From: a virus
Lineage: Duplodnaviria > Heunggongvirae > Uroviricota > Caudoviricetes
Length of the DNA: 64,000 nucleotides
Reading direction: 5' to 3' (one strand)
IMG/VR virus record: IMGVR_UViG_3300049044_000033
Coordinates: 222,796 to 286,795 of that record
Part shown: positions 5,831 through 52,938 of the stretch, piece after piece
Position numbering within the stretch: the stretch's first letter is position 1
Layout of the letters: each line of letters starts with the position of its first letter
Made by a program: the position numbers and the translations under genes
Notes under the pieces: generated by a model
The model's input: only the letters and a program-made list of their open reading frames with translations
Told to the model about the DNA's origin: nothing
Database searches by the model: none

Positions 5831-7105
5831 TTATAATCCTGGTCGATTCTGTCGCATACTTTCTACGACCTGCACGATGTCATTGACGATGTCTGGATTG
5901 AGCTCCAGTAGCTCAATGATCAATTCCTTCGGCGTCCTGGGATCATCCTCAAAGGACGGTGTGTTGGATTCTGGTTTCCATGCGTTGATAGCATTCTGCT
6001 GCTGCGTCAGCTGGGCTTCCCACTGCTGTAGGAGTTCACGCTCGTCATTCAAACGAGCTTCCATGTCGAGCAGCTCTTGGTGCGCCTTTGAGAGACTCTG
6101 CTGATCAGACTGAATAGAGGCAGATACCGAAGCGTATTCTTGTGCAAATTCCTGACGCTCTTTGTCAAACGCCGCACGAGCTTCCGCGAGGTCGTTCTTG
6201 AGCTCATCATACTTTGTATCTTGCTCAATTAGGTCCTCAAGCTTCTCCTCAAGCTTCTCCTCAAAAGTCTCAGCTTCTTCCTCAACAGCTTCAATAGGAT
6301 GATCTAGAAGATCAGATACTGGAACCATTTCGACCGGAGGTATGACAGCTTCGACCTTAGTCGCTTTAGCTTTCTCCTCCCTGAGCTTTTGAAGAGATAT
6401 GCTACCCATGATAAACATAGAGATAGCAAGGGGATCAAACGCAGCCATGATAAGGGAAATGATAATCCTGATTGCTTTCTCACCGTCCATACCAAGAGCT
6501 TCGGCAATGAACTTTGCCACACCGAGTTCGCCCTCTACATTACCAGTTTTGATCTTTAGCGGAACAAGCTTCTGAGTAATGTCATTGATCACAGTATTGT
6601 TGGCGTCAATGGACTTCTGAATCTCTGCGGCTTCTTTCTTCGACTGGTTAGAAGCACGAAGACCTGCACGAGCATTGCCCTCTAGAACCTTATCGGTGAT
6701 CTTGCTAATTTGACCCAAGCGAGCTTCTAAGCGAACGTTCTCATCTTGCTTTTGCTTCAACTGGGTTTCCAACTGTGCGACCTGAATACCAAGACCTGCG
6801 AGGGGAGCCTGTTGCTCAAGGTGTCCCTTACTCAAATAGCCGTAGATACCAAGGCTCGTTATAGCCATGAGACACGCGACAAAAAAGCAAAGAAGACCTC
6901 GGAAGTACCAAGGTGCTGAAGGATTTCTCCAGTTAGTGTGAATCCACTTAGCAGTCACGATCTTGCCGACCTCAAGGGCGGCGCCCATAATGACTACGCC
7001 CCAGAAGGTAGCCGCAAAGATGCTACCTAGACCTACTAGGGAGAAATAAGCCGCTACACCACTGATGATTGCTGCTACGAAAAAGATGAATAAGATGAAT
7101 GCCAT
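5831..7105 (-). CDS. membrane protein with long coiled-coil region
   Basis: 424 aa. About four N-terminal TM helices, then Glu/Lys/Gln-rich heptad-like segments. Confidence 0.5.
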   Translation of the reverse strand: MAFILFIFFVAAIISGVAAYFSLVGLGSIFAATFWGVVIMGAALEVGKIVTAKWIHTNWRNPSAPWYFRGLLCFFVACLMAITSLGIYGYLSKGHLEQQAPLAGLGIQVAQLETQLKQKQDENVRLEARLGQISKITDKVLEGNARAGLRASNQSKKEAAEIQKSIDANNTVINDITQKLVPLKIKTGNVEGELGVAKFIAEALGMDGEKAIRIIISLIMAAFDPLAISMFIMGSISLQKLREEKAKATKVEAVIPPVEMVPVSDLLDHPIEAVEEEAETFEEKLEEKLEDLIEQDTKYDELKNDLAEARAAFDKERQEFAQEYASVSASIQSDQQSLSKAHQELLDMEARLNDERELLQQWEAQLTQQQNAINAWKPESNTPSFEDDPRTPKELIIELLELNPDIVNDIVQVVESMRQNRPGL

Positions 7106-7183
7106 AAATGCCTCTAGGGTTCTGAAAAGGGTATATAGACTACCGGAGTAGACTGTCTACTTATCTCTTCAGAACCCAGAGGT

Positions 7184-7606
7184 TCAGGCGAATAAAGCCT
7201 TTAGCTTCTGCCAGAAAGAAAGCTTTGGCTTAGGAGTGAGGTCCGTAAGACCATTATAGCGGTCAAGGAACTTCCATGAGATGTTCTTAGCGCCGAAGAC
7301 TTCCAGGGCCTTGAATGCCATCTGGGGATCGAGATCGCTACAGGTGTAGATATCGAACTCGATAAATGGCTGCTCACATTCGTCCCAAGTGTGAAGAATC
7401 ATGTGCGAAGTTGTGATGTAAACACCAGCGGTCATGCCGCGATTGCCTACCTGCTCACAATATTCCGCAGATGCTTCCTTGAGGACTTCCATGTCCATAG
7501 CGTGAACGATATCGGTGAGCCATTGCTCGACGAATCGCTCATCCTTCTTCAATGGTGGATTGTCCACGTGAGCGTGGACGATAAGGTGCTTGTGAAGCTT
7601 TGCCAT
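7184..7606 (-). CDS. speD: S-adenosylmethionine decarboxylase proenzyme (small pyruvoyl-dependent class)
   Basis: 140 aa. ITTSHMILHTWDE resembles the ESHIxIHTWPE self-cleavage/active-site motif of class 1 AdoMetDC. Confidence 0.7.
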   Translation of the reverse strand: MAKLHKHLIVHAHVDNPPLKKDERFVEQWLTDIVHAMDMEVLKEASAEYCEQVGNRGMTAGVYITTSHMILHTWDECEQPFIEFDIYTCSDLDPQMAFKALEVFGAKNISWKFLDRYNGLTDLTPKPKLSFWQKLKALFA

Positions 7607-7693
7607 TATAGACTCCTAATCAAAAGATCGCGCTGTGCGAATAAGCGTGTCTCAGGAAGATTAGGAGATCCGCTTCTTCCTTCGTTTCACCTT

Positions 7694-8161
7694 TCAGAAA
7701 AACTTTGCCGTAGCGGTGATATTTATCGGATTAGGAATTTTATCCCAACCATCCCGCAACAGGTCATTAGAATTCACTGGCTTGAAGCCAGCTTCGCGAT
7801 CTAACGACCAGGTACAATGATAGGTGCCCCCGTCCGGACGAACGGTAGAACCATCGACTTCTACGACTAAGCACTCGATGCCTGCGTCATTACAAGCATA
7901 GCCCACGACTCGAAAGTTGCTGGCTTCGGGCAGAGGTTGATCAGACTTTGCACCACGCTTGAACGTGATGTGATGTCCAACAAACTCCTCAAACTTGGGA
8001 GGGAAAATAGCTGCCAATTGAGAACGACTCGACGCGCTCAATTCGAAGGCCTGGTAACCTCCCTTTGGCTTGCCAATGATCTCATTTGCTTTCAATTCTT
8101 CCTCCAAAGTAGAGCATTGTCTATGCGAATTTTTCCAACCTGTGTCAACATCAATCTTCAA
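7694..8161 (-). CDS. hypothetical protein with two HxTx motifs (2H phosphoesterase-like?)
   Basis: 155 aa. GHHITFK and YHCTWSL, about 60 aa apart, resemble the duplicated H-x-T/S-x catalytic motifs of the LigT/2H (and Acb1-like) fold. Weak call. Confidence 0.3.
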   Translation of the reverse strand: MKIDVDTGWKNSHRQCSTLEEELKANEIIGKPKGGYQAFELSASSRSQLAAIFPPKFEEFVGHHITFKRGAKSDQPLPEASNFRVVGYACNDAGIECLVVEVDGSTVRPDGGTYHCTWSLDREAGFKPVNSNDLLRDGWDKIPNPINITATAKFF

Positions 8162-8246
8162 ACCGATAAATTAACCTGTATCCAATGTGAAAATTGACAC
8201 GTTGGGTTCTAAATCCATAACGTAAAACAAAGATCAAGGGTTAACC

Positions 8247-10118
8247 ATGTCCAACAATATTAAGAAACTTACAGATTACCAACATGCGCGTCTCAGGACA
8301 GAAATGTACCTGGGTAGTCGTGCGCCACATACACAGACGATTCTTCAGATTGTAGATGGCAATCCTCAACCTGTTGAAATGACCTGGGTGCCTGCACTAT
8401 ATACGGCTTTTCGTGAGGTTCTCGATAACGCACTCGACGAAGTGATTGGCCATGGACATGGTAGCACTGTTAGAGTTAGCTACAATCCTTTGAATCGTGA
8501 AATGTCTATCGAGGATGACGGTCGCGGTATTCCGATTGCATATGATGAAGCACATAAGATGCACCTAGCAACTCTTGTTATGACCGAAGCTCGTGCGGGT
8601 CGTAACTTTGAGGAACGTGGCGAAGTAGCAGGTACTAATGGTATCGGTGCTAGCGTGGTGAACTTCTGCTCCGAGTTTTTCCGCCTTGACATCCAAAAGG
8701 ACGGCGAACGTTTCCAGCAAGAGTTCACTCAGGGCAATGCAGTCTTTGGTGACGAGTTACAGTTTGGCAAGGCAAAGCTGTCCAAGAAGACAGGCACAAA
8801 TGGCACTAAGGTAACCTTCAAACTGAGTAGCGAAGTATTCCCTGATCTAACGCTGCCGGAAGAGTTCATTCAGAGTCGTGTTGTTGAAGTTGCAATCTGT
8901 AACCCACTGGTCAAGATCTTCTACAATGGCAAGCAGATCAAGGTTAAGCCACGAGCTGAGCAGACCCTCTTCCCCGGTAGGAAGCCAATATCCATTGAGA
9001 TCAAGGAAGGTAGCTTCCGTAGCCGTTTTTGGATTGTGCCTAACTGGACAACTGGCGGCGATCATGTTCACACCATCGTGAATAACATTCCGGCTTTCAA
9101 CGGCGGTGTCCACATCGACACTTTCCGTCGACTCTTCTATGGTAATTTGCTAACTGCGCTTGAGCGCGAAAGCAAGCGTCGTAAGCTCAGCCCGAACCGT
9201 AGTGATGTTACCGAAGGTGTTCTGATCTACAACATCACAAATATGCACGGTCCTAACTTTGATAGTCAGTCCAAGACACGACTAATCAATGAAGAAGTCG
9301 GTAAGACGATCAGGACCTATCTAGAAGATCCAGAACTCTACAAGGACTTCATCAAGAAGAACAAGGACTGGATTGAGGAAATCTATAAGCGTTGTGCTGA
9401 ACGCACGATGAAGAAGGATGCCGGTGATCTCGCTAGAGCGGCCAAGAAGAACCTGCGCAACAAGGTTCCCAAGCTTATGGACGCAAGTGGCAAGGATCGC
9501 TCTAAGTGTATTCTCTTCCTAGCTGAGGGTGACTCGGCTATTGCGGGCATGGGCAGCGTTCGTGATCCTGACTATCATGGCGGGCTTGGCATGAGGGGTA
9601 AGGTTCTCAACGTCAATGGCGAATCTCCTAAGAAGGTTGTCGATAACAAGGAACTTGCAGACATTATGAGCTGCTTGGGTCTGATTATCGGTCAGAAGGC
9701 AGACCGCAAGGAACTTCGCTACGGCAAGGTTTATGTGGCTCATGATATGGATCCAGACGGACTTAATATTGGCGCTCTCTTGATCAATTTCTTCCACACT
9801 TATTGGCCTGAGTTGTTTGAAGATCAGGATAATCCGTTCGTCCACATTTTCCGCACTCCCTTTATCATCGCAGAGAAGGGTAAGTCGCGCAAATACTGGT
9901 ATGCTCATAACTACCAGGACTTTAAGCCAGAAGACTACAGCGGATGGACGATCACTCGCGCAAAGGGTCTCGGCACTCTTACTCGTGAGGACTGGGAATA
10001 CTCTCTCAAGAATCCGGAAGTCTACCCAGTTGTGGATGATGGCAAGATGGGTGAGACACTGGACCTGATCTTTAACGGTAAGCGGTCAGACGATAGAAAA
10101 ACCTGGATTGGCCTTTGA
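8247..10118 (+). CDS. DNA topoisomerase II large subunit (T4 gp39-like, GyrB-type ATPase + TOPRIM)
   Basis: 623 aa. GHKL ATPase motifs (EVLDNALDE, GTNGIG) and TOPRIM LFLAEGDSAIAG. The TOPRIM region is contiguous with gene 39, so the T4 gp60 equivalent appears fused. Confidence 0.85.
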   Translation: MSNNIKKLTDYQHARLRTEMYLGSRAPHTQTILQIVDGNPQPVEMTWVPALYTAFREVLDNALDEVIGHGHGSTVRVSYNPLNREMSIEDDGRGIPIAYDEAHKMHLATLVMTEARAGRNFEERGEVAGTNGIGASVVNFCSEFFRLDIQKDGERFQQEFTQGNAVFGDELQFGKAKLSKKTGTNGTKVTFKLSSEVFPDLTLPEEFIQSRVVEVAICNPLVKIFYNGKQIKVKPRAEQTLFPGRKPISIEIKEGSFRSRFWIVPNWTTGGDHVHTIVNNIPAFNGGVHIDTFRRLFYGNLLTALERESKRRKLSPNRSDVTEGVLIYNITNMHGPNFDSQSKTRLINEEVGKTIRTYLEDPELYKDFIKKNKDWIEEIYKRCAERTMKKDAGDLARAAKKNLRNKVPKLMDASGKDRSKCILFLAEGDSAIAGMGSVRDPDYHGGLGMRGKVLNVNGESPKKVVDNKELADIMSCLGLIIGQKADRKELRYGKVYVAHDMDPDGLNIGALLINFFHTYWPELFEDQDNPFVHIFRTPFIIAEKGKSRKYWYAHNYQDFKPEDYSGWTITRAKGLGTLTREDWEYSLKNPEVYPVVDDGKMGETLDLIFNGKRSDDRKTWIGL

Positions 10119-22755: not shown

Positions 22756-23087
22756 TTGCCACCGAACGTGAGCTTAAACATCGCTGCGATATCCCCTTTA
22801 GACTTGGGAAAAAGGAAGAAGGTGAAATCCCGATAAGAGCTATCAAGCATCATGAGAACTGGCAGATTATGCTGTTCATAAAACTCAGTAGCCTCTGGTC
22901 CACAAATCCTATCGGCCGTATCCGGATAGTCCGTTCTCGGTCGAAGGACAGTGAGTTCGTATCCCTTAATTGGAACGACATGGAATTGTTGCTCCATAGT
23001 GGATACGAACTCAGTATAATCGCAATGGTCAGTCATTCGACCTCCAACAGTTCTTCCTTCGACTTGGACCAGCGCGAGAAGGTCCAA
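22752..23087 (-). CDS. FKLxWGG-family small protein (second cluster)
   Basis: C-terminus AAMFKLTFGGK. Confidence 0.5.
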   Translation of the reverse strand: MDLLALVQVEGRTVGGRMTDHCDYTEFVSTMEQQFHVVPIKGYELTVLRPRTDYPDTADRICGPEATEFYEQHNLPVLMMLDSSYRDFTFFLFPKSKGDIAAMFKLTFGGK

Positions 23088-24187
23088 GCCTGCTTCATGC
23101 GATTCAGCCTCTGACCCATTGCCGGACCAGGCTTCATACCAGTTTCCAGCAGGTCCTTGCCCGAAACCGGGAAGGTCGGGATCACGAAGTTCCTCGCATA
23201 GTCGGCCAGGATAGTTTCACCCTGAACTTCAGCAAAGCTTACAACATGATCCCGAGGAAATTCGTCCCGAGTCAGCAGCACTTCAATCTTCTGCTCATCC
23301 AGGAAGACACCCCGATTGCGGATCATATTCCGAACCTTGGCTTCCTCGTGCGAGCTCATCTTCCAGAACTTGAAGAACTTCTCTTCGTCAGAGCTGGCAA
23401 CCAGTGTCGACAGAGCAGCCAGGGCATCATCGGCGCGAGACAGTTCAGCAGGATTGAAGCGGAACAGACCCAGTGCCCGATTAACCCGAGTCTTGAAGAT
23501 TGCATCAACAATGCGAGTCCGACCCGGCATCTTGGGATCCAGCAGCTTCTGCATTTCCAGCCAGAACCGCTCGACACTAACGACGTTCAGCTTATCCAGC
23601 ACCTCACCCTCGGCGAAGATATCCAGCGTCTCCTGATCCATCTTAGCATCGAAACGGGCTGCGAACCGGAAGAAGCGCAGAATACGCAGGTAGTCCTCTT
23701 CGACCCGCTTGCGCGCATCGCCTACGAATCGAACCACACGATTCTTCAGATCTTCCTGGCCCTTGAAGTAGTCGAATACGTTACCTTCAAAGTCCATCGA
23801 CATTGCGTTGAAGGTCAGGTCACGTCGCTCTGCATCCTCTTCAAACGACCTCGTGAATTCAACCTCAGCATGACGACCGTCAGTCTCGACGTCGATCCGC
23901 AGCGTCGTAACTTCGAAGGGTTCTTTGTCCACAACCAGCGTAGCCGTGCCGTGCTGGATACCAGTGGGAATAAAGCCGAACTTGTTGGTATCGGCGATCA
24001 CCTTCATCTCATCCGGCGTTGCGTCGGTGCAGAAGTCCACATCCTTAGCTTCGACGCCCAGCATGGCATCGCGGACACAACCGCCCACAAAACGAATCTG
24101 GAAGCCTGCTGCTTCAAAAGCAGCACCCAGCTTGTTCGTTTCCGGGGTCATCAGTTTGTCCAGCACGTCGATCTCCTTGTTGTTCAT
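23033..24187 (-). CDS. tRNA nucleotidyltransferase (CCA-adding enzyme) / poly(A) polymerase family
   Basis: 384 aa. GGCVRDAMLG...DVDF head-domain motif of class II nucleotidyltransferases. The plus-strand 322 aa ORF opposite is a shadow. Confidence 0.8.
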   Translation of the reverse strand: MNNKEIDVLDKLMTPETNKLGAAFEAAGFQIRFVGGCVRDAMLGVEAKDVDFCTDATPDEMKVIADTNKFGFIPTGIQHGTATLVVDKEPFEVTTLRIDVETDGRHAEVEFTRSFEEDAERRDLTFNAMSMDFEGNVFDYFKGQEDLKNRVVRFVGDARKRVEEDYLRILRFFRFAARFDAKMDQETLDIFAEGEVLDKLNVVSVERFWLEMQKLLDPKMPGRTRIVDAIFKTRVNRALGLFRFNPAELSRADDALAALSTLVASSDEEKFFKFWKMSSHEEAKVRNMIRNRGVFLDEQKIEVLLTRDEFPRDHVVSFAEVQGETILADYARNFVIPTFPVSGKDLLETGMKPGPAMGQRLNRMKQAWTFSRWSKSKEELLEVE

Positions 24188-27321: not shown

Positions 27322-27705
27322 TTAGACTTCTTCTTCTGGAGTGAAGTCGTCAGTGTCGACTTCTTCAGCTTCCATTACGCCTTCCGATGCGGCTGCGAAG
27401 GACCATGCCGAAGCAGTACCGTCGCCGAAAGTAGCCATGTGAGCCTTGATCTTTACAGCGTTCTTGACGTTGTCATCTGCATCCTTGAGCGCGATGGTCA
27501 TATCGCCAGCAGCGAGGGTGCCTTCTACCTTGTCAACTAGATAGCAAACGCCGGTATCAGAACCGACCTTAACAACAAAACGCTTCGAACCAGTCTGCTT
27601 TACGATGAAACCATCGCCTTCAGCAGCAGAACCGATCTTAGCGCGAACCTTGAACTGATTGCCAGCACCAGTACCGAAAAGCGACTTCTTAAGTGGACGT
27701 CCCAT
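27322..27705 (-). CDS. hypothetical protein (127 aa, acidic C-terminus)
   Basis: ORF with clean start context. Confidence 0.45.
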   Translation of the reverse strand: MGRPLKKSLFGTGAGNQFKVRAKIGSAAEGDGFIVKQTGSKRFVVKVGSDTGVCYLVDKVEGTLAAGDMTIALKDADDNVKNAVKIKAHMATFGDGTASAWSFAAASEGVMEAEEVDTDDFTPEEEV

Positions 27706-27764: not shown

Positions 27765-28208
27765 CTATATGGTTAAGCGAAACAAGACCATATGCTTCGG
27801 GGTATCGGACAATGGGGAATCAATCATCTGAACAATCAAAGGGGTGACCTTAATAGCTCGTTCGCTACAAACTTCATTGCTTCTCTTTAGGTCATTGCTG
27901 ACCATACCCAAATCAATCCAGCGACAATAACCCATATCTGTAAAGCTACTAGGTGATACCTTTATAGCATAGAGGTAAGCGTGAAGATACGCAGCAACTT
28001 TAGATTGCCCATGCTTCTCGTGAAGTTCCCAGAGGTTCCTACCCAATCGAGTGCAGGTCTTCTTCAATCGACCTTTCTCGTAAGGCGTGATACCTAGAGT
28101 GTTTACAGATACCTCTTCACATTCCATCTTGTCCTTGATATCAAGAGCTAGGTTACGGATAAGACGGAGGTCTTTGATAATAGTCTTATAGAGCTCTGCA
28201 ATATCCAT
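27765..28208 (-). CDS. hypothetical protein (147 aa)
   Basis: ORF. Its stop overlaps the upstream gene's start. Confidence 0.45.
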   Translation of the reverse strand: MDIAELYKTIIKDLRLIRNLALDIKDKMECEEVSVNTLGITPYEKGRLKKTCTRLGRNLWELHEKHGQSKVAAYLHAYLYAIKVSPSSFTDMGYCRWIDLGMVSNDLKRSNEVCSERAIKVTPLIVQMIDSPLSDTPKHMVLFRLTI

Positions 28209-28699
28209 TACCGGTATCCCAATTCCTTGATATCATTGCGCACCTGAGTCTCAATCTCGCCTAAGTCGTTAGAACCTTGCCAAGTGGATCGGCTCAAAGC
28301 CCGAGGATCATTGGCCGCCAAGCCAATACCCCAAACTCTGTCCCATGGGGACGCTTCCACTAGAGTCGTGCCATCCGTAGCCAGTAGCCAATTCAGGCAA
28401 TTGGTATCCTGAGTGAACTTGGCAAAGTTGGCTCGATATACGATCAGCTTCCGGTTAGCCTCCCATTTGGACGACACAAAACCTCGTACCAAGCGACCAG
28501 TGGCTTTCTGAACCTTGGGATTGTCACTTTTCATAATGATGTCAAGGGCGTCATCATCACCAAACAGTCGGGCTTTCTCAGCCATCATGAACTGTTCCGC
28601 GCAGTTGTATTCCACACCCTCTATGGTAAACCAGCTAGGATACCACTGGCTTCCAGGTCCACCATAGAAGAATGTGAATTGCTCGCTCACTGGCACCAA
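28208..28699 (-). CDS. NADAR / YbiA-like (DUF1768) domain protein
   Basis: FFYGGPGSQWYPSWF...CAEQFMMAEKARLFGD...LVEASPWDRVWGIG matches the NADAR family signature. Confidence 0.75.
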   Translation of the reverse strand: MVPVSEQFTFFYGGPGSQWYPSWFTIEGVEYNCAEQFMMAEKARLFGDDDALDIIMKSDNPKVQKATGRLVRGFVSSKWEANRKLIVYRANFAKFTQDTNCLNWLLATDGTTLVEASPWDRVWGIGLAANDPRALSRSTWQGSNDLGEIETQVRNDIKELGYR

Positions 28700-29130
28700 C
28701 CTGCCCGCTTGCCGCCAATATAGGGACGAGCATAACCACGAGCAATCAACATATTAGTGAGGCTCTCTCCGCCCACGAACACATCAGCATCAACGCGCCC
28801 GCCATACTTGTCCCACTTGAGGTTGGTCAGCGTAACCTTGCGACCAGCAGTGAGGATCACGCGAGTTGTAAATGCCTTGGCCGCTTGTGCGTTATACTTT
28901 TCTGAAGGGCACTTGCCGCGCATCTCAGGGGTATCAACACCACGAACCCGGACGCCAATCCGGCTCAGTTCAGGCGGCAGACCAGTCATCTTAATGTAAA
29001 AGGTATCTCCGTCATAGATACCCACAACATCGTAGGTATAGGTCGGAGCAGCGATTGCTGGGGTTGCGACAAAAGCCGCAAGAGCAAAAAGGGCGTTACG
29101 AATAATCTTCATAACACCCTTTTTACACAT
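28687..29130 (-). CDS. secreted staphylococcal-nuclease-like (SNase/thermonuclease) protein
   Basis: Signal peptide, then VVGIYDGDTFYIK...RVRGVDTPEMRGKC...YGGRVDADV...LIARGYA, the SNase GDT...R.GIDTPE pattern. Confidence 0.65.
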   Translation of the reverse strand: MCKKGVMKIIRNALFALAAFVATPAIAAPTYTYDVVGIYDGDTFYIKMTGLPPELSRIGVRVRGVDTPEMRGKCPSEKYNAQAAKAFTTRVILTAGRKVTLTNLKWDKYGGRVDADVFVGGESLTNMLIARGYARPYIGGKRAGWCQ

Positions 29131-29152: not shown

Positions 29153-30352
29153 TTAGCGGGCATTAAGCTGTGCCTGTCGCTGTGCTGCCGAGGCCAGCGA
29201 TTCCTTGAGCTTCTGCTCTGCTGCGATCAAACGCTGCTCAGCATCGGCGCGCTTGGCCTTACCTTGCTCTGCGAGATCGATGGACTCATTGATCGTAGCG
29301 ATCAAGAGTTCATTAGCCTGTTCCGCTGCCTCAACATCGAAGATGCCGCGCTCGATTTCCTTGCGGGCAACTGCGTTGCTAGTATTGAGCTGCTTCGCGG
29401 ACTGAACGATCAGCTCGTTGGTGAAATCAGTAGCCGTCTTAGTGGCCTTGCCGGCTTCTTCTGCGCGCCATGCTGCAATGGAAACAGCCATAGTGCGCTT
29501 CCAGAGGGGCAAAGTATTGAGCAGCTGACTCTGGATCTTCTCTGCGAGACCCTTATCATTTGCCTGGACGATGCGGATGCTAGGTAGCGCCTGGATGGTC
29601 AGGTTACGCGTCAGCAAGAGATCAGCCCGCTTGCGTTCCAGAGAATCACGAGCTTCGGTCAAGTCCCGCAGATCCTGCACATCTGCCATATCACCGCTGG
29701 CATCGGACTTAGCCTTGGCGGCCGGGATCATATTCGTGTTAACGTCCTCGAGCAGGTAGTCCATAGCGGCAATCTGCTCATCGAGCGAATCCAGCAGACC
29801 CAACGTGGCTTCGTATTGCTTGTCGAGTGCCACAATATCCTTGAGCATCTGGACGCGATGCCCTTCAAGAACGTTGTAGGTCTTGAGAATCTGACCTTCG
29901 ACCGTCTGGTAGCGATCCAGGAACTTCTGCAGGACGCTGGCCTTACCTAGCAGCTTTTGGAAGAAGCCAGGCTTCTGACCAGTAGCAAGAGCCGCAAAAT
30001 CCAGCCCCTTCATTTCGCGGACCATCTGGTTCATCGCGTCGCCGACTGGACCAGTATCCTTGGTACGAACGCCCTGGAGCATTTGTTCGGAAACTTGCGT
30101 AGTTGCCTTCTGTGCTTCAACGCCGAAGGTGATAATCGACTGACTATCCTTGAGGTTGATCTTGCTTGCGAGCTCCTTGGCACGTTCGCGCGACACCTTG
30201 TTGGGAATACGTCCGGCCTGACCATTGAGGCTGACAATATCCTGAGATCCGATCTCAGGCACGGTCAGAGCATTTTCAGCCGTCGGTGTGGGGAGAAGTT
30301 CACCGGTCAACGACGGGGTCGCCGTACCGATCTTTGTAGGATCACTTGCCAT
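29153..30352 (-). CDS. TelA-like (toxic anion resistance family) protein
   Basis: 399 aa alpha-helical protein. Family-level resemblance only. Confidence 0.4.
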   Translation of the reverse strand: MASDPTKIGTATPSLTGELLPTPTAENALTVPEIGSQDIVSLNGQAGRIPNKVSRERAKELASKINLKDSQSIITFGVEAQKATTQVSEQMLQGVRTKDTGPVGDAMNQMVREMKGLDFAALATGQKPGFFQKLLGKASVLQKFLDRYQTVEGQILKTYNVLEGHRVQMLKDIVALDKQYEATLGLLDSLDEQIAAMDYLLEDVNTNMIPAAKAKSDASGDMADVQDLRDLTEARDSLERKRADLLLTRNLTIQALPSIRIVQANDKGLAEKIQSQLLNTLPLWKRTMAVSIAAWRAEEAGKATKTATDFTNELIVQSAKQLNTSNAVARKEIERGIFDVEAAEQANELLIATINESIDLAEQGKAKRADAEQRLIAAEQKLKESLASAAQRQAQLNAR

Positions 30353-30354
30353 TT

Positions 30355-31071
30355 TTAGATTCCCTCGTTGTTGAGTCGGTTCTTCATAACAGTCATGTTG
30401 ACATCAAAGTCCATGACATCATTTGCCAAAAGCTTGTCGAGCAGCTTTTGGAAATTATCATCGATGGTGTCGAGCATTTCGTCGAACTGTGCCATCTGCT
30501 TCTGTGCTTCGAGATTGCGAGCACCGGTCCGGCTCAGCTGAGCATAGCCCTTGACTAGTGTGATCGTTTCATCCAAGTAACTGTTGAGCCAGCTTTGAGC
30601 CAGCAAAACGTCCTTGGGATCAACGCGGAAATCCTCGATGATCTTACGACCAATAGCATCAATATGCTTGATGCGTCGGATTGTGTTGGGGCTCTTGATC
30701 TGGGTAGCTTCCATGAGGATCCGGTCCAGCTTGTCACTGCCCATCTTGATCGCTTCCACGACCAGCTTCGTATCCACGCCCGAAGTACCTGCTGCGATAT
30801 CGTCAATATGCCGGTAGAGATCCTTAATGTCTTGTGCGGTTGCCGGGCGCCGACCAGGGAAGAAGTACCAAATCCCTAATCCAGTTGCTGCGCTCAACGG
30901 GCCAGCTAGTGCGAGATCACCGATAAAGGAAAGTGGGAAAGCAGCCATGCCGCTTACAAAGACACACGTTGCGCCTCCAAATGCTGCTAACTTACTCACT
31001 AGATCTTTGTTCATCGGTTCCTCGCTTAACACTGGCTCCTTTATAGCAAGGTTTACCAATGTGTCTACCAC
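30355..31071 (-). CDS. hypothetical membrane-associated protein (238 aa)
   Basis: ORF with hydrophobic N-terminal segments, coupled to its neighbours. Confidence 0.45.
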   Translation of the reverse strand: MVDTLVNLAIKEPVLSEEPMNKDLVSKLAAFGGATCVFVSGMAAFPLSFIGDLALAGPLSAATGLGIWYFFPGRRPATAQDIKDLYRHIDDIAAGTSGVDTKLVVEAIKMGSDKLDRILMEATQIKSPNTIRRIKHIDAIGRKIIEDFRVDPKDVLLAQSWLNSYLDETITLVKGYAQLSRTGARNLEAQKQMAQFDEMLDTIDDNFQKLLDKLLANDVMDFDVNMTVMKNRLNNEGI

Positions 31072-31129
31072 TGATTAGAAAAGAAAGGGCGACATTGCTG
31101 CCGCCCCTTCTCCTATAGGTTAGTCCAAC

Positions 31130-32869
31130 TTAGTCTTCTGGGTTAATACCAGCAAGCTTCTGGATCTCAGCCTTCTCGCTAGGAGCAAGAGGAGCCTCGA
31201 TTACCGTCTTAGCTACGCGACGTGCTGCTGGCTTTGCAACCTGCGGAGCACCCACGACTGCCAGACCTTCATCATCCAGAGGAGCAGCAACCGATTCGAC
31301 CAGACCATTAAGGCCACGGCTCAGGTCAACGCCAAGCTCGCGAGCCAGTTCGTCAACAACCGGAACCTGCAGTCGGTAGCCCAGCATCGAGTTGGTCAGG
31401 TCAGTAGCGAGGTTTCCTGTAGGAGCCGACTGACCGCCGAAACCTTCGCCATTGGAATGACCGCCCAGGCCACCCATCTGAACTACGCGGATGCTGTCGA
31501 CCTTCTCCATCGGCTTGGTCATCTTTTCCATGATGGCCGGCAGAGCTTCAATCAGAGCCTTGCGCATGTTGTATGCCATCTGGGCAGAGCTTGTCACGTT
31601 AGCAGCTTCGTTGAGGGCGCGCTGACCTTCCGATTCAACTTCGTAACGCTTTGCGTCAGCGTCGATGAGGCGTTCCTTGGCCTGTGCGCTTGCGTCAGCA
31701 GCAGCCAGTTCAGCTTCAGCACGGATACGAATACCCGCAGCTTCTTCCTGAGCCTTAGTCTCAGCCGCAATAACAGCAACCTTCTGGCTACGTTCTGCCT
31801 GTGCCTGTGCCTCAACAGTCTTCACCGCTTCAGCAGCCTTAACAGCTTCCGCGCGAGCAGCATCAGCAGCCGCACGGGCCTTGGATTCCTGCTCCGACTT
31901 CTCAGCAACCGCAATACGTGACTGCTGGCTAGCAATCTCGAGAGCCTGCGCTGCTTCAGTTTCGGCTACCTGGATAGCGCGCTTCTGTTCGACGCGAGCC
32001 TGCTCAGTAGCACGAGCAGCTTCAATTTCTGCCAGATCAGATTCACGCTTACGGTCGGCGCGGGTCTGGGCCAGTTCAGCTTCCTGCTGGGCACGACGGG
32101 TTTCAACTTCGCGCTCCTGCTCCAGGGTAGCGAATTCGTCCTGCTGCTTAATATCCAGCGAGCGCTTGTTGGCTTCGAAGTTCTTCTGCTCAATCGCAAC
32201 GCGGTTGTCAGCTTCGATGTCGTTACGCTCCTTCTTGCGAGTCTCAGTAACCTGAGTCAGCTTCGCAAGACCTTCAGCGTCGAAGGCGTTGTTGGGGTTG
32301 AAGAATTCAACCGAAGTCTGGTCCAGACCAGTTAGCGACACCGATTCAAGTTCCAGACCGTTCTTGCGCAGGTCTTCAGCAACAGTTGCCTGAACCTTCT
32401 GAACAAACTCAGCGCGCTTTTCGTGAAGGTCCTGCATATCCATACCAGCTGCCGCAGCACGGAGAGCGTCGATGAACTTGCCTTCAATTAGCGAAGCCAG
32501 CTGATCAGGAGCCAAGGTGCGGCGACCAAGCGTCTGTGCCGCAGCCGCAATGCTCTGCTCATCTGGAGCAACACGAACATAGAACTCTGCCTTCACGTCA
32601 ACGCGCAGACGGTCCTTAGTGATCAGCGAATCACGACCCTTACGTTCGACACCGAGACGCAGCGTCTGCATGTTGATGGGGATGGTTTCGTGGAACACTG
32701 GCAGAATAACAGCGCCACCGTCCTTAACGACCTTCTGTCCACCCATACCAGTACGGACAAAAGACTGTTCCTTGCTTGCGCGATGGAACATTTTGGTCAT
32801 GATCAAACCGATGACCATGAAACCTACTAGGAAGACGCCTAGCAGAATACCTGCAAATTGAAGAGTCAC
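31130..32869 (-). CDS. SPFH/band-7 flotillin-like protein (YqiK-like)
   Basis: 579 aa. N-terminal TM, SPFH core (VRTGMGGQKVV...), then a long Ala/Glu-rich repetitive coiled coil (AEAELAAADASAQAKE). Confidence 0.75.
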   Translation of the reverse strand: MTLQFAGILLGVFLVGFMVIGLIMTKMFHRASKEQSFVRTGMGGQKVVKDGGAVILPVFHETIPINMQTLRLGVERKGRDSLITKDRLRVDVKAEFYVRVAPDEQSIAAAAQTLGRRTLAPDQLASLIEGKFIDALRAAAAGMDMQDLHEKRAEFVQKVQATVAEDLRKNGLELESVSLTGLDQTSVEFFNPNNAFDAEGLAKLTQVTETRKKERNDIEADNRVAIEQKNFEANKRSLDIKQQDEFATLEQEREVETRRAQQEAELAQTRADRKRESDLAEIEAARATEQARVEQKRAIQVAETEAAQALEIASQQSRIAVAEKSEQESKARAAADAARAEAVKAAEAVKTVEAQAQAERSQKVAVIAAETKAQEEAAGIRIRAEAELAAADASAQAKERLIDADAKRYEVESEGQRALNEAANVTSSAQMAYNMRKALIEALPAIMEKMTKPMEKVDSIRVVQMGGLGGHSNGEGFGGQSAPTGNLATDLTNSMLGYRLQVPVVDELARELGVDLSRGLNGLVESVAAPLDDEGLAVVGAPQVAKPAARRVAKTVIEAPLAPSEKAEIQKLAGINPED

Positions 32870-32885
32870 TTAATTCTCCTATGAA

Positions 32886-33530
32886 TTAGATCTTACGCAC
32901 CATGTGGGCGTGATTAATTGACCTATGTGGACCGGTTAGCACCGCAGTTTCACCCACATCAATATTTTCTTCACCATCGGCAAAGACATAAACGTAATGA
33001 TCAGTACCATACTGATCGGTTACCCGGATTGAACCACTCTGGGTATTTGAGACTGGTCCGACAACAATAGGACCGGATAGATTAGATAAACTTTCCAGAG
33101 ATACCGCGGATGTAATATCTCTAGGCATTAATTGTGCAGCCACAATCGACCCCCAACGAACAAAGGGGAGCGTCAATGAGAACACAATAGGACAACTGAG
33201 CAACATAGGAGCATAGGCACCTGTCAGGCCTTCATAGACCCACTGTGCGCTATATCCAAGGATTGTGAACACTGTGCTGAAGATCACAAGGAAGATCATC
33301 ACTGGAACACTTCCAGGATTAAACCAACCTAAGATGTGAGAGTCTACTTCTAAGTAGTCGGGAATGCCGTTCCCGTTCAGATCCGCAGAGAAATCTATAT
33401 CATGATGGAATGAGCTAAAGCCCAAAATCAATCCGATGATTTCAAGAACCAAAATAGCACCGAGGAGACACGCACTCACAAGGAATGGTGTGTTGGCTTG
33501 TGCTAGTAAGAAAGTAGAAATGTTGTCCAT
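32886..33530 (-). CDS. NfeD-like membrane protein (YqiJ-like partner of flotillin)
   Basis: 214 aa. Multiple TM helices plus a C-terminal beta-rich segment, immediately upstream of the SPFH gene in the same orientation, as in yqiJK operons. Confidence 0.5.
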   Translation of the reverse strand: MDNISTFLLAQANTPFLVSACLLGAILVLEIIGLILGFSSFHHDIDFSADLNGNGIPDYLEVDSHILGWFNPGSVPVMIFLVIFSTVFTILGYSAQWVYEGLTGAYAPMLLSCPIVFSLTLPFVRWGSIVAAQLMPRDITSAVSLESLSNLSGPIVVGPVSNTQSGSIRVTDQYGTDHYVYVFADGEENIDVGETAVLTGPHRSINHAHMVRKI

Positions 33531-33565: not shown

Positions 33566-33865
33566 TTATTCTTTTGGTGGGAGAGAGTCAGCTAATCGTG
33601 CGAGGACGTTACCGTGACAAGGAGAGGGTGAACACCAGCAACCTAACTTTTTGCCTTTGAGTTCATAGAGGGCATCCATAAGAGCTTTTTGCTCTACTAC
33701 CCACTCAGCATATTGCTGGATACATTCTTCTCGGGTGCCGTCACGCCCGACCACGAAGGGATTGCCCCACTTTGTCTTCCGGTCGATACGAACGTCGTAG
33801 TGATCTTCTTTGAGATTAACTACCGAGGTTCCGGGCGGGGGCCATGAAAAGAGATCGTCTGCCAT
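33566..33865 (-). CDS. DUF4326-like small protein
   Basis: 99 aa. WGNPF...LGCWCSPSPCHG motif. Confidence 0.5.
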   Translation of the reverse strand: MADDLFSWPPPGTSVVNLKEDHYDVRIDRKTKWGNPFVVGRDGTREECIQQYAEWVVEQKALMDALYELKGKKLGCWCSPSPCHGNVLARLADSLPPKE

Positions 33866-34052: not shown

Positions 34053-34124
<72 letters not shown>

Positions 34125-34170
34125 CATGTTGTGTGCTCTCTTTGTAGCACCTACATACCTATTTAGCAAT

Positions 34171-34530
34171 TTAAACTTTGAACTCTTTCTTCAAAGCTTC
34201 TTCCATTTGAGAAAAGGAGAGTGGCTTTTCTAAGACTGTGAAGCCATGGAAGGCTTCCGGAAGCTTATGGGGATCACCGGTGCAAACAATCACAGGGGTG
34301 AGGCTATGCCGGAGGTGCTCTGCTACTTCTTCAGTAGTGCCATCTGTGAGCGTCACATCAAGGACCACCCCGGCGAATCTGCTATTTTCCACAAGCTTTA
34401 TGGCTTCAGGAACTGTTGAGGCAAATCCCGCTACTGTGAGACCGACCTCATCGCATACTTCTTCCCAGTAGATTTGAAGATATGCTTCATCTTCAATAAT
34501 CAGGACTTGTTTGCGATTTATTCCAAACAT
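34171..34530 (-). CDS. stand-alone response-regulator receiver (CheY-like REC) domain protein
   Basis: VLIIEDE acidic pocket, VVLDVTLTDG phospho-acceptor Asp region, PVIVCTG, LEKP Lys. 119 aa with no output domain. Confidence 0.7.
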   Translation of the reverse strand: MFGINRKQVLIIEDEAYLQIYWEEVCDEVGLTVAGFASTVPEAIKLVENSRFAGVVLDVTLTDGTTEEVAEHLRHSLTPVIVCTGDPHKLPEAFHGFTVLEKPLSFSQMEEALKKEFKV

Positions 34531-51025: not shown

Positions 51026-51271
51026 ATGGGCGATCTATTTAAAAGTGTAGTCGAAATGATCGCGAAGGGCGAAGCAGGTTCACTGACGGCTATCCTTCTA
51101 GCTATCATCGGGGTTCTGGGATGGTATTGCTACCGTCTTATGAAGCAGGTGGAAAAGAAGGACGAGAAGATCTACAAGATCATCGACGAATATTCCAAGA
51201 ACAACATTACCATCACTGATGCGTTGAATGGTCTAAAGACTGTGTTGATCGAGATTAAGGCAAAGCTCTAA
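51026..51271 (+). CDS. small membrane protein
   Basis: 81 aa, one TM helix (SLTAILLAIIGVLGWYCY). AAGGAG RBS 8 nt upstream. Confidence 0.45.
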   Translation: MGDLFKSVVEMIAKGEAGSLTAILLAIIGVLGWYCYRLMKQVEKKDEKIYKIIDEYSKNNITITDALNGLKTVLIEIKAKL

Positions 51272-52938
51272 TGTGGTTCAATAAGGATAAAAAGGCTAAG
51301 AAGCAGCAAAGGGAAGCAGTTCTAAAAGCTGCGATGGAATCTAGCGAAGCTTTGGAAAAGGCCGCTAAGGGGACCATGAATCTAGCCGAAGATGTTACTA
51401 AGACTCTTCAGAGCCGAATTGATGATTATGCCCAGCAGATTGACCAAACAGCCCGCCTCCTAAGTGATGCCCTCATGCTTGTTGATGATCACGGAATCAT
51501 TGAAAGCTTCAACCAAGCAGCTGAAAGCATGTTTGGTCATGCTCGTCGTTCAATTAGAGGCAAGAATCTTTCTACCCTTTTTGAATTCCAACAAGACACA
51601 AAGATCACCCCAGACTTCATGGAAGAGCTGATGAACAAGGTGAGCGAGAATGATCTCTCTGCTACTGTTCATTATGAAGACTTTATGGGAGTCCGCAAGG
51701 ATGACACGAAGTTCTATGTTGATGTAGGCGTAAGCAAAATCATCCGTAGCAATTCAAAAGTCAAGTATATCATCCTGGTTCGTGACGTAAGCCAAAAGGT
51801 CATGAATAGCAAGATGCTAGAAGAATTAGCTCAGAGGAACCAAGAACTCCTAGCAACTATCGATGCTTCAAATACTGGGTTCATCATTATTAGTCCTGAT
51901 GGTAGTGACTTCAAGATCAACTTCGTGAATGAAGGCTTTAGTCGCCTAACTGGTTATTCGAGAACTCAAATACGTAACATGAGTCTAATGGACCTTCTTG
52001 GCATAGAGCAGACATTCTGGTCAGTGCGCCGCAGTCTATTGGAGCACGTAGAAGCACGTCATGAAGTTCAGCTAGAAATCGGCAACTGTCAGACTATTTG
52101 GTTCGACGTTCAGATTACACCGGTCTTTCAGAATGGTGTGTTGAACCAGTGGATTCTAGTATTCTATGATACTACCGCACTCAAGAAGGCCTATCACGAC
52201 CTACGCAAAAGCGAGTCGCACTTTAAGGCATTCAGTGACGCTAGCTCTGAAAGTATGTTGATTCACAACTTTGGCCAGGTGATTGATTGGAATGATCGAC
52301 TCAATAAGCTGACCGGCTACTCTGACGAAGAGATCGAGCAACTCGGTCCACTAGATTTGGTTCATCCTTTAGAGCGTGAAAAGATTCGTGACGAAGTTCA
52401 TCTTCTAGGTAGTAACAGCTACGAAACCCTCTTCATGACCAAGCAGGGAGACGTTCGAGAAGTAGCAGTGAATAGTCGTTCAATTGAATGGGAAAATGCT
52501 GACGCTCGTATTGCTATCGTGCGTGATGTAACTGAATACAAGGATATCGAGACTCAGCTAAAAACAGCTAGAGAGCGTTACCGCACTGTCATTGATAACA
52601 CAATCGACATGGTGATCTGCTTTAATGCCAATTTCGAGATCACTTTTAGCAACCAGACCTTCCGAGACTACTATGATGTAGAACTCGAAGATATTAATGG
52701 ATTCTCCCTCCTAGAGATTATCCCAGAGCCTGATCACCGCAAGTTCATGGAGTATATGTTGAGCATTACTCCTGATATGCAAGTTCGTCGTGGAATTCAT
52801 CGCGTTCAGCGTCACGATGAGGTTAGAATGCAGGATTGGATCGATCGTGGTATCTTTGATGAAGATGGCACCTTGATCGAAATCCAAAGCATTGCTCGAG
52901 ATGTAACGAGTCTACTTCCTCCCCCAAATCAGACTTGA
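51271..52938 (+). CDS. multi-PAS domain protein without recognisable output domain
   Basis: 555 aa. About four PAS-like modules (for example LMLVDDHGIIESFNQAAESMFGH, FIIISPDGSDFKINFVNEGFSRLTGYS, MLIHNFGQVIDWNDRLNKLTGYS, MVICFNANFEITFSNQTFRDYY). ATG overlaps the upstream stop. Confidence 0.65.
   Translation: MWFNKDKKAKKQQREAVLKAAMESSEALEKAAKGTMNLAEDVTKTLQSRIDDYAQQIDQTARLLSDALMLVDDHGIIESFNQAAESMFGHARRSIRGKNLSTLFEFQQDTKITPDFMEELMNKVSENDLSATVHYEDFMGVRKDDTKFYVDVGVSKIIRSNSKVKYIILVRDVSQKVMNSKMLEELAQRNQELLATIDASNTGFIIISPDGSDFKINFVNEGFSRLTGYSRTQIRNMSLMDLLGIEQTFWSVRRSLLEHVEARHEVQLEIGNCQTIWFDVQITPVFQNGVLNQWILVFYDTTALKKAYHDLRKSESHFKAFSDASSESMLIHNFGQVIDWNDRLNKLTGYSDEEIEQLGPLDLVHPLEREKIRDEVHLLGSNSYETLFMTKQGDVREVAVNSRSIEWENADARIAIVRDVTEYKDIETQLKTARERYRTVIDNTIDMVICFNANFEITFSNQTFRDYYDVELEDINGFSLLEIIPEPDHRKFMEYMLSITPDMQVRRGIHRVQRHDEVRMQDWIDRGIFDEDGTLIEIQSIARDVTSLLPPPNQT

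Follow-up and report, generated by a model that had tools for sequence, protein, structure and literature searches.

A NADAR-domain protein of a metagenomic huge phage is a candidate eraser of ADP-ribose marks and is encoded beside a predicted exported nuclease

Orphan NADAR proteins of phages were shown in 2025 to counter DarTG1 (PMC11825919). In particular, AdfN proteins of the Bas60 type (Bas60-62) neutralise DarT1 and restore plaquing on DarTG1 hosts (Johannesman et al. 2025, PMC11825919). DarG1, the NADAR antitoxin linked to DarT1, has an Asp at the third catalytic position, carries an N-terminal extension and lies adjacent to DarT1 (PMC11543638, PMC11825919). All NADAR subtypes assayed so far, YbiA of E. 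coli included, remove ADP-ribose from guanine in vitro (PMC11125620). Note that activity in vitro does not always bring protection in vivo, as is the case for YbiA and for gp30.3 of phage T4 (AdfN-T4), which fail to rescue DarT1 toxicity (PMC11125620); YbiA is encoded in a LexA-controlled chromosomal operon (PMC11125620). In the NADAR of E. coli C7, residue K115 is required for rescue from DarT1 in vivo (PMC11543638). This residue corresponds to K75 of the NADAR from Phytophthora nicotianae, whose complex with ADP-ribose is available as structure 8BAU (Schuller et al. 2023, PMC11543638).

Here we analysed a 64-kb stretch of DNA (the window) from a phage of ~460 kb that is known only from metagenomes, and within it a NADAR-domain gene, the nuclease gene upstream of it and the small gene that follows (Table 1). 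A sequence-only reading had set the NADAR and nuclease genes at 28208-29130, and both ORFs are found there on the minus strand, at 28208-28699 (163 aa) and 28687-29130 (147 aa). With moderate confidence, we favour the view that the NADAR is a cytoplasmic guanine-ADP-ribose glycohydrolase that serves counter-defence, and that the nuclease is functionally separate from it.

Table 1. Coordinates of the features discussed, given as positions in the window
Feature	Position	Strand	Description
ORF147	27765..28208	minus	all-helical, clade-restricted; its ATG overlaps the NADAR stop (TAATG)
NADAR-domain gene	28208..28690	minus	160 aa from GTG 28690; predicted cytoplasmic ADP-ribosyl-nucleobase glycohydrolase
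GTGA start/stop overlap, nuclease–NADAR	28687..28690	minus	read from sequence; translational coupling
Staphylococcal-nuclease-fold (thermonuclease) gene	28687..29130	minus	147 aa; predicted exported Ca2+-dependent nuclease
Stretch encoding the predicted signal peptide of the nuclease	29050..29112	minus	MKIIRNALFALAAFVATPAIA then AP; judged by inspection

The length of 163 aa first given for the NADAR holds for the longest ORF, which opens with a TTG, but the real start is most likely the GTG at 28690, so that the protein would be 160 aa long. Consistent with this, the public gene call (P0001) has 160 aa and is 100% identical to the NADAR protein, and in five relatives the NADAR starts at the homologous ATGA/GTGA position. 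An exact-sequence look-up with the 163-aa ORF gave no match because the public gene calls begin at the 160-aa start. The NADAR/YbiA signature that had been read from the sequence was confirmed with Pfam PF08719, which matches with E=3.2e-43 (148.2 bits; cut-off 35.1) and nearly in full, over profile positions 14-162 of 163; the ORF also matches phrog_1017. The protein is a single domain with neither a signal peptide nor a Cys pair.

Both the fold and the active site place the protein in the NADAR superfamily. An AlphaFold (AF2) model has a pLDDT of 97.2, and a Foldseek search of the PDB with this model returned 8BAU first (TM 0.82, E=2e-10) and YbiA (2B3W) second (TM 0.79), with no further PDB match at E<=0.001. 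(The protein is compact, its structure is predicted with very high confidence, and it should be easy to assay.) The catalytic residues, whose loss would have spoken against the sequence-only reading, are all present: E35, K42 and E115 (in the 163-aa numbering, which is used below unless stated otherwise) correspond to E43, K50 and E125 of 8BAU. The ADP-ribose-contacting residues K65, R69, W79, R83, D120 and W123 are retained as well. Among the ligand contacts of 8BAU named in PMC11543638, E43, K50, K75, R79, W89, R93, E125, D130 and W133 are kept, and Y84F and D86S are the only changes. Moreover, E32, K39, E112, D117 and W120 (160-aa numbering) are invariant across 36 aligned homologues. The active site is complete. 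Relative to 8BAU, the best structural match and likewise a minimal stand-alone domain, the phage protein is 30-32% identical; 8BAU differs in being eukaryotic and in having ~16 more residues in the loop after the WGIGL motif.

Among characterised NADARs, an AdfN of the Bas60 type, encoded by phage Bas62, comes nearest, though with an identity of only 30.6% (81.6 bits; AdfN-Bas32 was left out of this comparison). Both are orphan single-domain NADARs of phages with a Glu-type E/K/E triad, both lack an adjacent DarT, and both have two insertions that are missing from the YbiA clade. They also score almost equally against the PADLOC NADAR profile PDC-M42C, with 121.9 bits for the protein described here and 117.5 bits for Bas62 AdfN, as against 56.5 bits for YbiA and no match for T4 gp30.3. 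In addition, K65 aligns with K75 of 8BAU, and hence with K115 of the E. coli C7 NADAR, and with a Lys in the Bas62 protein; in E. coli YbiA this position is an Ala. The two phage proteins differ in that the Bas62 AdfN has two additional insertions of ~10 and ~7 residues and comes from a Justusliebigvirus phage of 145 kb rather than a huge phage. Activity against DarT1 has been demonstrated for Bas60, and the present NADAR is likened to it by sequence.

Other described NADARs stand further away. AdfN-T4 (gp30.3) belongs to the same superfamily and shares the chemistry of guanine de-ADP-ribosylation, but it has a His as its third catalytic residue and gave no BLASTP match to the phage NADAR. DarG1 likewise shares superfamily and chemistry, but its distinguishing traits are absent here: the third catalytic residue is a Glu (E115), the protein has no extension, and its neighbours are the nuclease and ORF147. 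(DarG1 was compared by its published description rather than by structure alignment; searches of the PDB with phmmer, a profile and Foldseek returned no structure of a DarG1 NADAR.)

We considered whether the NADAR might instead be an auxiliary metabolic enzyme, that is, a YbiA-type N-glycosidase acting on riboflavin intermediates or on an ADP-ribose or NAD-derived metabolite, which would support the nucleotide or NAD economy of a huge phage during its long infection without repairing nucleic acids. This we consider unlikely. The protein passes TIGR02464, 'riboflavin biosynthesis intermediates N-glycosidase', with 144.9 bits (cut-off 73.7), so its NCBIfam name would be riboflavin-intermediate N-glycosidase; however, the same model accepts Bas62 AdfN (109.7 bits) and thus does not discriminate. 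Similarly, the Glu at the position of 8BAU E125 is of the YbiA type, and E. coli YbiA (COG3236) has the same fold and a Glu-type active site and is covered by the same TIGR02464 model, but YbiA lacks a 3-residue 'KAR' segment and an 11-residue loop. These two YbiA-specific deletions are absent from the phage NADAR. It is only 24-27% identical (40-53 bits) to nine members of the YbiA clade, and in a neighbour-joining tree that clade is monophyletic with 100% bootstrap support and excludes the phage protein. (The support for the YbiA clade is the sole value cited from this tree, the deep-node bootstraps being unusable owing to a rooting artefact.) These sequence comparisons put the phage NADAR outside the riboflavin clade of YbiA, which removes the housekeeping placement that would have refuted the first reading. 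Also counting against a metabolic role, all assayed subtypes, YbiA among them, remove guanine-ADP-ribose in vitro (see above).

The gene neighbourhoods of NADAR homologues also bear on a metabolic role. The closest cellular homologues are 45-58% identical and are spread over six or more phyla. Their recurrent neighbours encode radical-SAM-NUDIX (18 loci), microbial PARG (12), ARH-phosphatase (11), Macro (6), a second NADAR (5) and PRPP synthetase (4), as well as HIRAN. The PRPP synthetase genes would fit a metabolic enzyme, but PARG, ARH and Macro are erasers of macromolecular ADP-ribose, and no riboflavin genes were found among the ten annotated recurrent neighbour clusters (80 closest cellular loci). 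(We also tested whether these cellular neighbours are the remaining parts of the PADLOC candidate system PDC-M42, and they are not.) A hint of an NAD-metabolic role comes from a 61%-identical NADAR of other phages, which adjoins NAMPT and NUDIX genes; in the window itself, by contrast, no riboflavin, NAMPT or NUDIX genes were found. Large virulent phages often encode a NADAR, the family being present in 714 of 50,697 phage records. The nearest relatives outside the clade of the present phage are those of Pamexvirus/Bosavirus.

We therefore return to counter-defence. We infer here which substrate the enzyme uses, that it opposes a host defence and which system it targets. As a stand-alone and presumably catalytically competent protein, the NADAR would work in the host cytoplasm, where it would cut the N-glycosidic bond that links ADP-ribose to a nucleobase. 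In single-stranded phage DNA this would most likely be at guanine N2, and RNA or cytosine may be substrates too. It would thereby erase ADP-ribose marks that a DarT1-type or other guanine-specific ADP-ribosyltransferase (ART) of the host places on replicating phage DNA, as has been published for AdfN proteins of other phages. The proposal of the sequence-only reading that the protein is a candidate anti-DarTG factor is supported, as a candidate, by the intact catalytic residues, the placement outside the YbiA clade and the ADP-ribose-processing neighbours of its homologues.

The surroundings of the NADAR are those of a huge-phage genome, and it is an orphan gene with no cognate DarT beside it: a scan of 88 of the 95 window ORFs against Pfam, and of five of the other seven against PHROGs only, found no ART, DarT or Macro genes in the window, and no ART adjoins the NADAR at seven related phage loci. 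These results argue against one form of a different ADP-ribose conflict, in which the NADAR would confer self-immunity against the phage's own ART used on host DNA or RNA, but the scan covers 64 kb and ~400 kb of the phage genome lies outside it. Two further forms can be envisaged. The NADAR may reverse the ADP-ribosylation of RNA or cytosine by a non-DarT1 defence; in support of this, NADARs also act on guanosine-ADPr on RNA (PMC11833690) and on cytidine-ADPr (PMC12945103), and YbiA-like NADARs of myxobacteria are antitoxins of a non-DarT ART (PMC11125620). Alternatively, it may bind an ADP-ribosylated defence complex without catalysis, in the manner of the phage NADAR U56, which inhibits Retron-Eco1; a phage NADAR that works without enzymatic activity is cited in PMC11825919 (Carabias 2024). 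The strict conservation of every catalytic residue, however, argues for an enzymatic role over pure binding. Taken together, the three forms amount to an improbable alternative.

The gene next to the NADAR is a real nuclease gene of the staphylococcal nuclease (SNase) fold, as had been proposed. Its ORF matches Pfam PF00565 (E=9.6e-8; 32.9 bits, cut-off 21) and phrog_452 'endonuclease' (4e-15), and in an alignment D21/R35/D40/T41/E43/K84/Y85/R87 of the S. aureus nuclease correspond to D42/R61/D66/T67/E69/K108/Y109/R112, so that the Ca2+ ligands (D42/D66/T67) and the catalytic residues (R61/E69/R112) are intact. As in relatives, the second ATG (29112; MKIIR...) is the probable start codon, which would give 141 aa. 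By inspection, the N-terminus has a basic start, an 11-residue hydrophobic core and an A-I-A cleavage motif, the mean Kyte-Doolittle value of the core being 2.34 as against 0.26 for the NADAR N-terminus; signal-like N-termini were likewise seen by inspection in six of six clade members. The same six members keep a Cys74/Cys146 pair. Such a predicted signal peptide is typical of secreted members of the family, whereas the Cys pair is specific to this phage clade, and in contrast to the S. aureus enzyme the phage version has ~120 mature residues and no C-terminal helix region. Few phages encode an SNase (13 of 50,697 records at E<=1e-5), and the nearest relatives outside the clade are in Sulfurimonas and Rhizobium phages. 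We predict that the protein is a separate exported Ca2+-dependent DNase/RNase that acts in the periplasm or the medium.

The coupling of the two genes that the sequence-only reading reported is real as a translational overlap within one phage clade, but the evidence gives no functional link. Gene order is kept in seven diverged huge-phage genomes, and the start/stop overlaps of nuclease with NADAR and of NADAR with ORF147 are conserved. In four of the relatives the nuclease–NADAR overlap is an equivalent ATGA/GTGA, in another (L021) it is 8 nt, and in L013 a 61-aa ORF, coupled at both ends, lies between the two genes. Identity across the clade is 67-80% for the NADAR, 50-81% for the nuclease and down to 27-40% for ORF147. 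The adjacency of nuclease and NADAR is confined to this clade. In the interval 24-36 kb, scans for promoters and terminators performed no better than on shuffled sequence, and the 10 kb surrounding the locus gave no megablast match among the 50,697 phage records. Of cultured phages, those most closely related are Phosso, which infects Sinorhizobium, and Atu_ph07, which infects Agrobacterium, with protein identities of only 30-44%.

One could take the shared gene order and the conserved overlaps as a sign that the products of the nuclease and NADAR genes, alone or together with that of ORF147, work as a single functional cassette, in which, for example, the NADAR would clear modified DNA of ADP-ribose for degradation by the nuclease, or in which the two would serve as a pair for superinfection exclusion and self-protection. 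We regard such a cassette as extremely unlikely. The predicted signal peptide and the disulfide-type Cys pair are found in the nuclease and not in the NADAR, so the two proteins should work in different compartments. Moreover, outside the clade the genes occurred together at none of 14 further phage loci with a NADAR (11 of them distinct) and at none of four further SNase loci; they are split by the 61-aa ORF in L013-type genomes; Phosso has the upstream TelA module and neither gene at that site; and their outside relatives come from different phages. On present evidence, then, nuclease and NADAR share a putative operon and a start-stop overlap and no function.

A broader version of the same idea treats nuclease, NADAR and ORF147 as one accessory cassette, a combined unit of counter-defence and superinfection exclusion that the huge-phage clade would have added to an envelope module of flotillin, NfeD, XpaC and TelA. 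The helical ORF147, as a partner specific to the clade, would then localise the NADAR or enhance its action, analogous to the T4 factor proposed to assist AdfN-T4. DNA that enters or is released would be destroyed by the exported nuclease, and the target would be an undescribed ADP-ribosylating defence of a possibly alphaproteobacterial host. We consider this very doubtful. (Phage TelA/XpaC/flotillin modules were also looked for in the literature, with no relevant result.)

The annotation of a NADAR in this huge phage is correct and fairly ordinary. That a phage NADAR acts against DarTG1 is no longer a new idea, having been published in 2025 (PMC11825919), and since the family and its chemistry are already published as well, the locus adds little to the concept. 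If the protein is active, however, the 'orphan antitoxin' strategy of AdfN, so far found in T4-like, T5-like and Bas60-62 (phi92-like) coliphages, would reach environmental huge phages of ~460 kb, and the hosts of huge phages related to Phosso and Atu_ph07 would be expected to use guanine ADP-ribosylation in nucleic acids as a defence.

On the minus strand, nucleotides 28208-29130 contain two overlapping ORFs. The sequence-only reading had taken these to encode a NADAR-domain protein and a staphylococcal nuclease (SNase)-like neighbour, and profile searches bear this out: the NADAR ORF matches PF08719 over nearly the whole profile (E=3.2e-43, 148 bits, cut-off 35) and the nuclease ORF matches Pfam SNase above its cut-off (E=9.6e-8). 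Since both matches exceed the cut-offs, both genes are real, far beyond chance. The NADAR ORF also matched NCBIfam TIGR02464 and phrog_1017, a PHROG without an assigned function. Its start is most likely GTG 28690, giving 160 aa, because the homologous ATGA/GTGA position is the NADAR start in five relatives and the identical public protein P0001 is called at 160 aa; from this start, the NADAR gene overlaps the nuclease stop codon in a GTGA. For the nuclease, ATG 29112 (MKIIR...) is the probable start, as in its relatives.

Features of the NADAR locus and of the surrounding window
Feature	Position	Strand	Remarks
CCA-adding enzyme	23033-24187		
127-aa protein starting MGRPLKKSLFG	27322-27705	-	
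ORF147	27765-28208	-	Start overlaps NADAR stop codon (TAATG); translationally coupled
NADAR ORF	28208-28699	-	163 aa from TTG; Pfam NADAR PF08719 match
Nuclease ORF	28687-29130	-	147 aa; Pfam SNase and phrog_452 'endonuclease' matches
TelA	29153-30352	-	Membrane module
XpaC/Halogen_Hydrol	30355-31071	-	Membrane module
Flotillin/SPFH	31130-32869	-	Membrane module
YqiJ/NfeD-like	32886-33530	-	Membrane module
DUF4326	33566-33865	-	
tRNA-Thr(GGT)	34053-34125		
Stand-alone response-regulator receiver	34171-34530	-	

The window carries genes for a ribonucleotide reductase (RNR), topoisomerase II, a DnaB-like helicase and virion proteins. Megablast of 10 kb around the locus against 50,697 phage records found no near-identical cultured relative, and JGI contigs of 406-462 kb carry the identical NADAR protein; the source is thus a huge phage. 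One virion protein matches Sinorhizobium phage Phosso (469 kb; 39% identity, with TelA at 44%) and Agrobacterium phage Atu_ph07 (30%), relatives that hint weakly that the host may be alphaproteobacterial. Translation-related genes within 69-25468, of a sort typical for huge phages, encode IF3, ribosomal L7/L12 and the CCA-adding enzyme, and the window also has ClpX, QueD/PTPS, AdoMet decarboxylase and Smr. The receiver, the DUF4326 protein and a multi-PAS protein with a diguanylate-cyclase-like sensor domain (apparently at 51271-52938, plus strand) are signalling-type genes in a phage. (A batch scan of 32886-63934 also matched an InPase domain, a PD-(D/E)XK nuclease and, at E=1e-10, the major tropism determinant N-terminal domain Mtd_N, which hints at a diversity-generating-retroelement target protein.)

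The nuclease appears equipped for catalysis outside the cytoplasm. When aligned with S. aureus nuclease, it keeps the Ca2+ ligands D21/D40/T41 (as D42/D66/T67), the catalytic R35/E43/R87 (as R61/E69/R112) and K84/Y85 (as K108/Y109). All six clade members share a basic-hydrophobic N-terminus, followed in four of them by a visible AxA-type motif, and the Cys pair C74/C146; this conserved signal-like N-terminus and Cys pair fit predicted export to the oxidising periplasm or the medium. Inspection of the NADAR N-terminus revealed no signal peptide.

We compared seven diverged huge-phage genomes (the window, L003, L013, L016, L020, L021 and L028), which share one gene order: YqiJ/NfeD, flotillin, XpaC, TelA, nuclease, NADAR, (ORF147), orf127 and phrog_2319. 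Nuclease identity ranges over 50-81%, NADAR identity over 67-80% and ORF147 identity over 27-40%. The sequence-only reading had described NADAR as coupled to a signal-peptide-bearing SNase gene. Within the clade this stands, in that the ATGA/GTGA overlap is kept in five of the seven genomes; in L021 the overlap is 8 nt. In L013-type genomes (L013/L014/L015, 5816-6001; a 465-kb relative) a 61-aa ORF lies between the two genes and overlaps each of them at start and stop codons; coupling thus survives the insertion of a gene. Outside the clade the coupling does not extend: the nuclease gene is missing from every one of 14 further NADAR loci in phages (11 of these phages distinct), NADAR is absent from all four other nuclease loci, and in cultured Phosso the four-gene membrane module is followed by neither gene. 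The nuclease is itself rare in phages (13 of the 50,697 records at E<=1e-5, mostly Rhizobium phages). Despite the conserved overlap, it is very unlikely that nuclease and NADAR form a true functional unit; because there is no outside link, the predicted compartments differ and the two proteins have different closest relatives outside the clade, we read their adjacency as clade-specific operon architecture.

The membrane module (29153-33530, minus strand) lies immediately upstream of the nuclease, is kept in at least seven huge-phage contigs and resembles a set of genes, carried by a phage, for envelope stress or membrane organisation; a literature search on phage TelA/XpaC/flotillin modules found nothing relevant. 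On the other side of NADAR lies ORF147, an orphan whose family counts 14 representatives in 1.84 billion proteins; its conserved motif is TPYExGRLxRSCTRLG. Its AlphaFold2 model is an all-helical bundle (pLDDT 93.4), and neither a structure search with this model nor profile searches (including Pfam, PHROGs, PADLOC and NCBIfam) gave a specific fold or family match. ORF147 is absent from two of the seven genomes, and to see it as a partner of NADAR would be speculative. The N-terminal domain of the 127-aa protein recurs in two longer L003 paralogues (7033-8277 and 8356-9327), one of which continues into tandem repeats of ~95 residues; together they may form a modular family of adhesins or virion decorations.

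To map NADAR residues, we used phmmer and profile alignments to 8BAU, the Phytophthora nicotianae NADAR structure with ADP-ribose, read against the contact list of PMC11543638. The catalytic residues are kept: in the 163-aa ORF, the distal-ribose glutamates E43 and E125 are E35 and E115, and K50, which contacts phosphate and adenine, is K42. Further contacts are likewise conserved (K75 as K65, G78 as G68, R79 as R69, W89 as W79, R93 as R83, D130 as D120 and W133 as W123); Phe replaces Y84 and Ser replaces D86, and nothing else on the list differs. In 36 aligned homologues the catalytic Glu/Lys/Glu set does not vary, and neither do D117 and W120 (160-aa numbering). An AlphaFold2 model from that alignment (mean pLDDT 97.2) had two significant PDB matches, 8BAU (TM 0.82) and E. 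coli YbiA 2B3W (TM 0.79).

YbiA is a riboflavin-intermediate N-glycosidase, and the query falls outside this 'housekeeping' clade, placement in which the sequence-only reading had named as a refutation. In BLASTP its best characterised relative is the AdfN-Bas60-type protein of BASEL phage Bas62 (bas62_0106; 81.6 bits, 30.6%), followed by 8BAU (68 bits, 31.6%), with nine YbiA-clade proteins at 40-53 bits (24-27%) and no match to T4 gp30.3. A neighbour-joining tree, which resolves the YbiA-clade node and not deeper ones, gave that clade 100% bootstrap with the query outside. Two stretches that the YbiA clade lacks, 3 residues following the catalytic lysine and a loop of 11 residues, are present in the query, Bas62 AdfN and 8BAU. 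Moreover, K115 of E. coli C7 NADAR (8BAU K75), which is needed for in-vivo DarT1 rescue (PMC11543638), has an equivalent lysine in the query and Bas62 AdfN, whereas E. coli YbiA has Ala. The PADLOC profile PDC-M42C scored the query at 121.9 bits, Bas62 AdfN at 117.5, PaMx28 at 130.6 and YbiA at 56.5, and did not match T4 gp30.3. (Note that the TIGR02464 name is not diagnostic, because the validated Bas62 AdfN passes at 109.7 bits as well as the query at 144.9.)

Among cellular proteins, the 80 nearest homologues (identity 44-58%) come from Planctomycetota, Bacteroidota, Bacillota, Myxococcota, Proteobacteria and archaea; such scatter is typical of a mobile rather than a core gene. Clustering every ORF within 3 kb of NADAR at these loci (L031-L110) revealed a radical-SAM-NUDIX fusion (18 loci), microbial PARG (12), an ADP-ribosylglycohydrolase (ARH)-dual-specificity-phosphatase fusion (11), Macro (6), a second NADAR (5), HIRAN (5) and PRPP synthetase (4); riboflavin genes made up none of the 10 annotated recurrent clusters. 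(One neighbouring PARG is fused to LRRs.) These cross-phylum neighbourhoods look like an uncharacterised ADP-ribose-processing island; their proteins gave no match to the remaining components of PADLOC candidate PDC-M42. On two phage contigs from other samples (L026/L027, 2525-6480), the genes for a NUDIX protein and NAMPT, which make up a NARP2-like pair for NAD+ reconstitution, stand immediately upstream of a NADAR of 61% identity; this suggests that NADAR at times belongs to anti-defence islands centred on NAD. Together, the cellular neighbours and this pair tie the subfamily to ADP-ribose and NAD biology. A metabolic role for the query, as an N-glycosidase or NAD-linked enzyme, would draw on the TIGR02464 match and on the NAMPT neighbour of the 61%-identical phage NADAR; given its placement outside the YbiA clade, we consider such a role unlikely. 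Among 88 of the 95 window ORFs scanned against Pfam, in a window covering 64 kb of a ~460-kb genome, there were no ADP-ribosyltransferase, Macro, NUDIX or NAMPT genes.

NADARs hydrolyse guanine-ADP-ribose and act as DarT1 antitoxins (Schuller et al. 2023, PMC11543638), and four E. coli/phage subtypes are all active in vitro and unequal in vivo (Cihlova et al. 2024, PMC11125620). The orphan phage NADARs AdfN-T4, AdfN-Bas32 and AdfN-Bas60 counter DarTG1 enzymatically (Johannesman et al. 2025, PMC11825919). Most non-T4 phage NADARs group with bacterial NADARs that are neither YbiA nor DarG1 (PMC11825919), a picture with which the placement of the query agrees; 714 of the 50,697 phage records hold a homologue (E<=1e-5). 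RNA guanosine-ADPr (PMC11833690) and cytidine-ADPr (PMC12945103) are also NADAR substrates, and PMC11825919 cites a phage NADAR that inhibits a retron without enzymatic activity. Action in another ADP-ribose conflict, be it self-immunity, activity on RNA or cytosine, or binding to a retron, seems a doubtful alternative. The anti-DarTG idea of the sequence-only reading was right as a candidate assignment, the NADAR being intact and non-YbiA, and is already published, hence no longer novel. The query is an intact, phage-borne, non-YbiA NADAR. We predict its enzymatic activity with some confidence and, with rather less, favour its being a cytoplasmic guanine-ADP-ribose glycohydrolase, which by removing guanine-ADP-ribose in the cytoplasm would counter DarT1-like defence.
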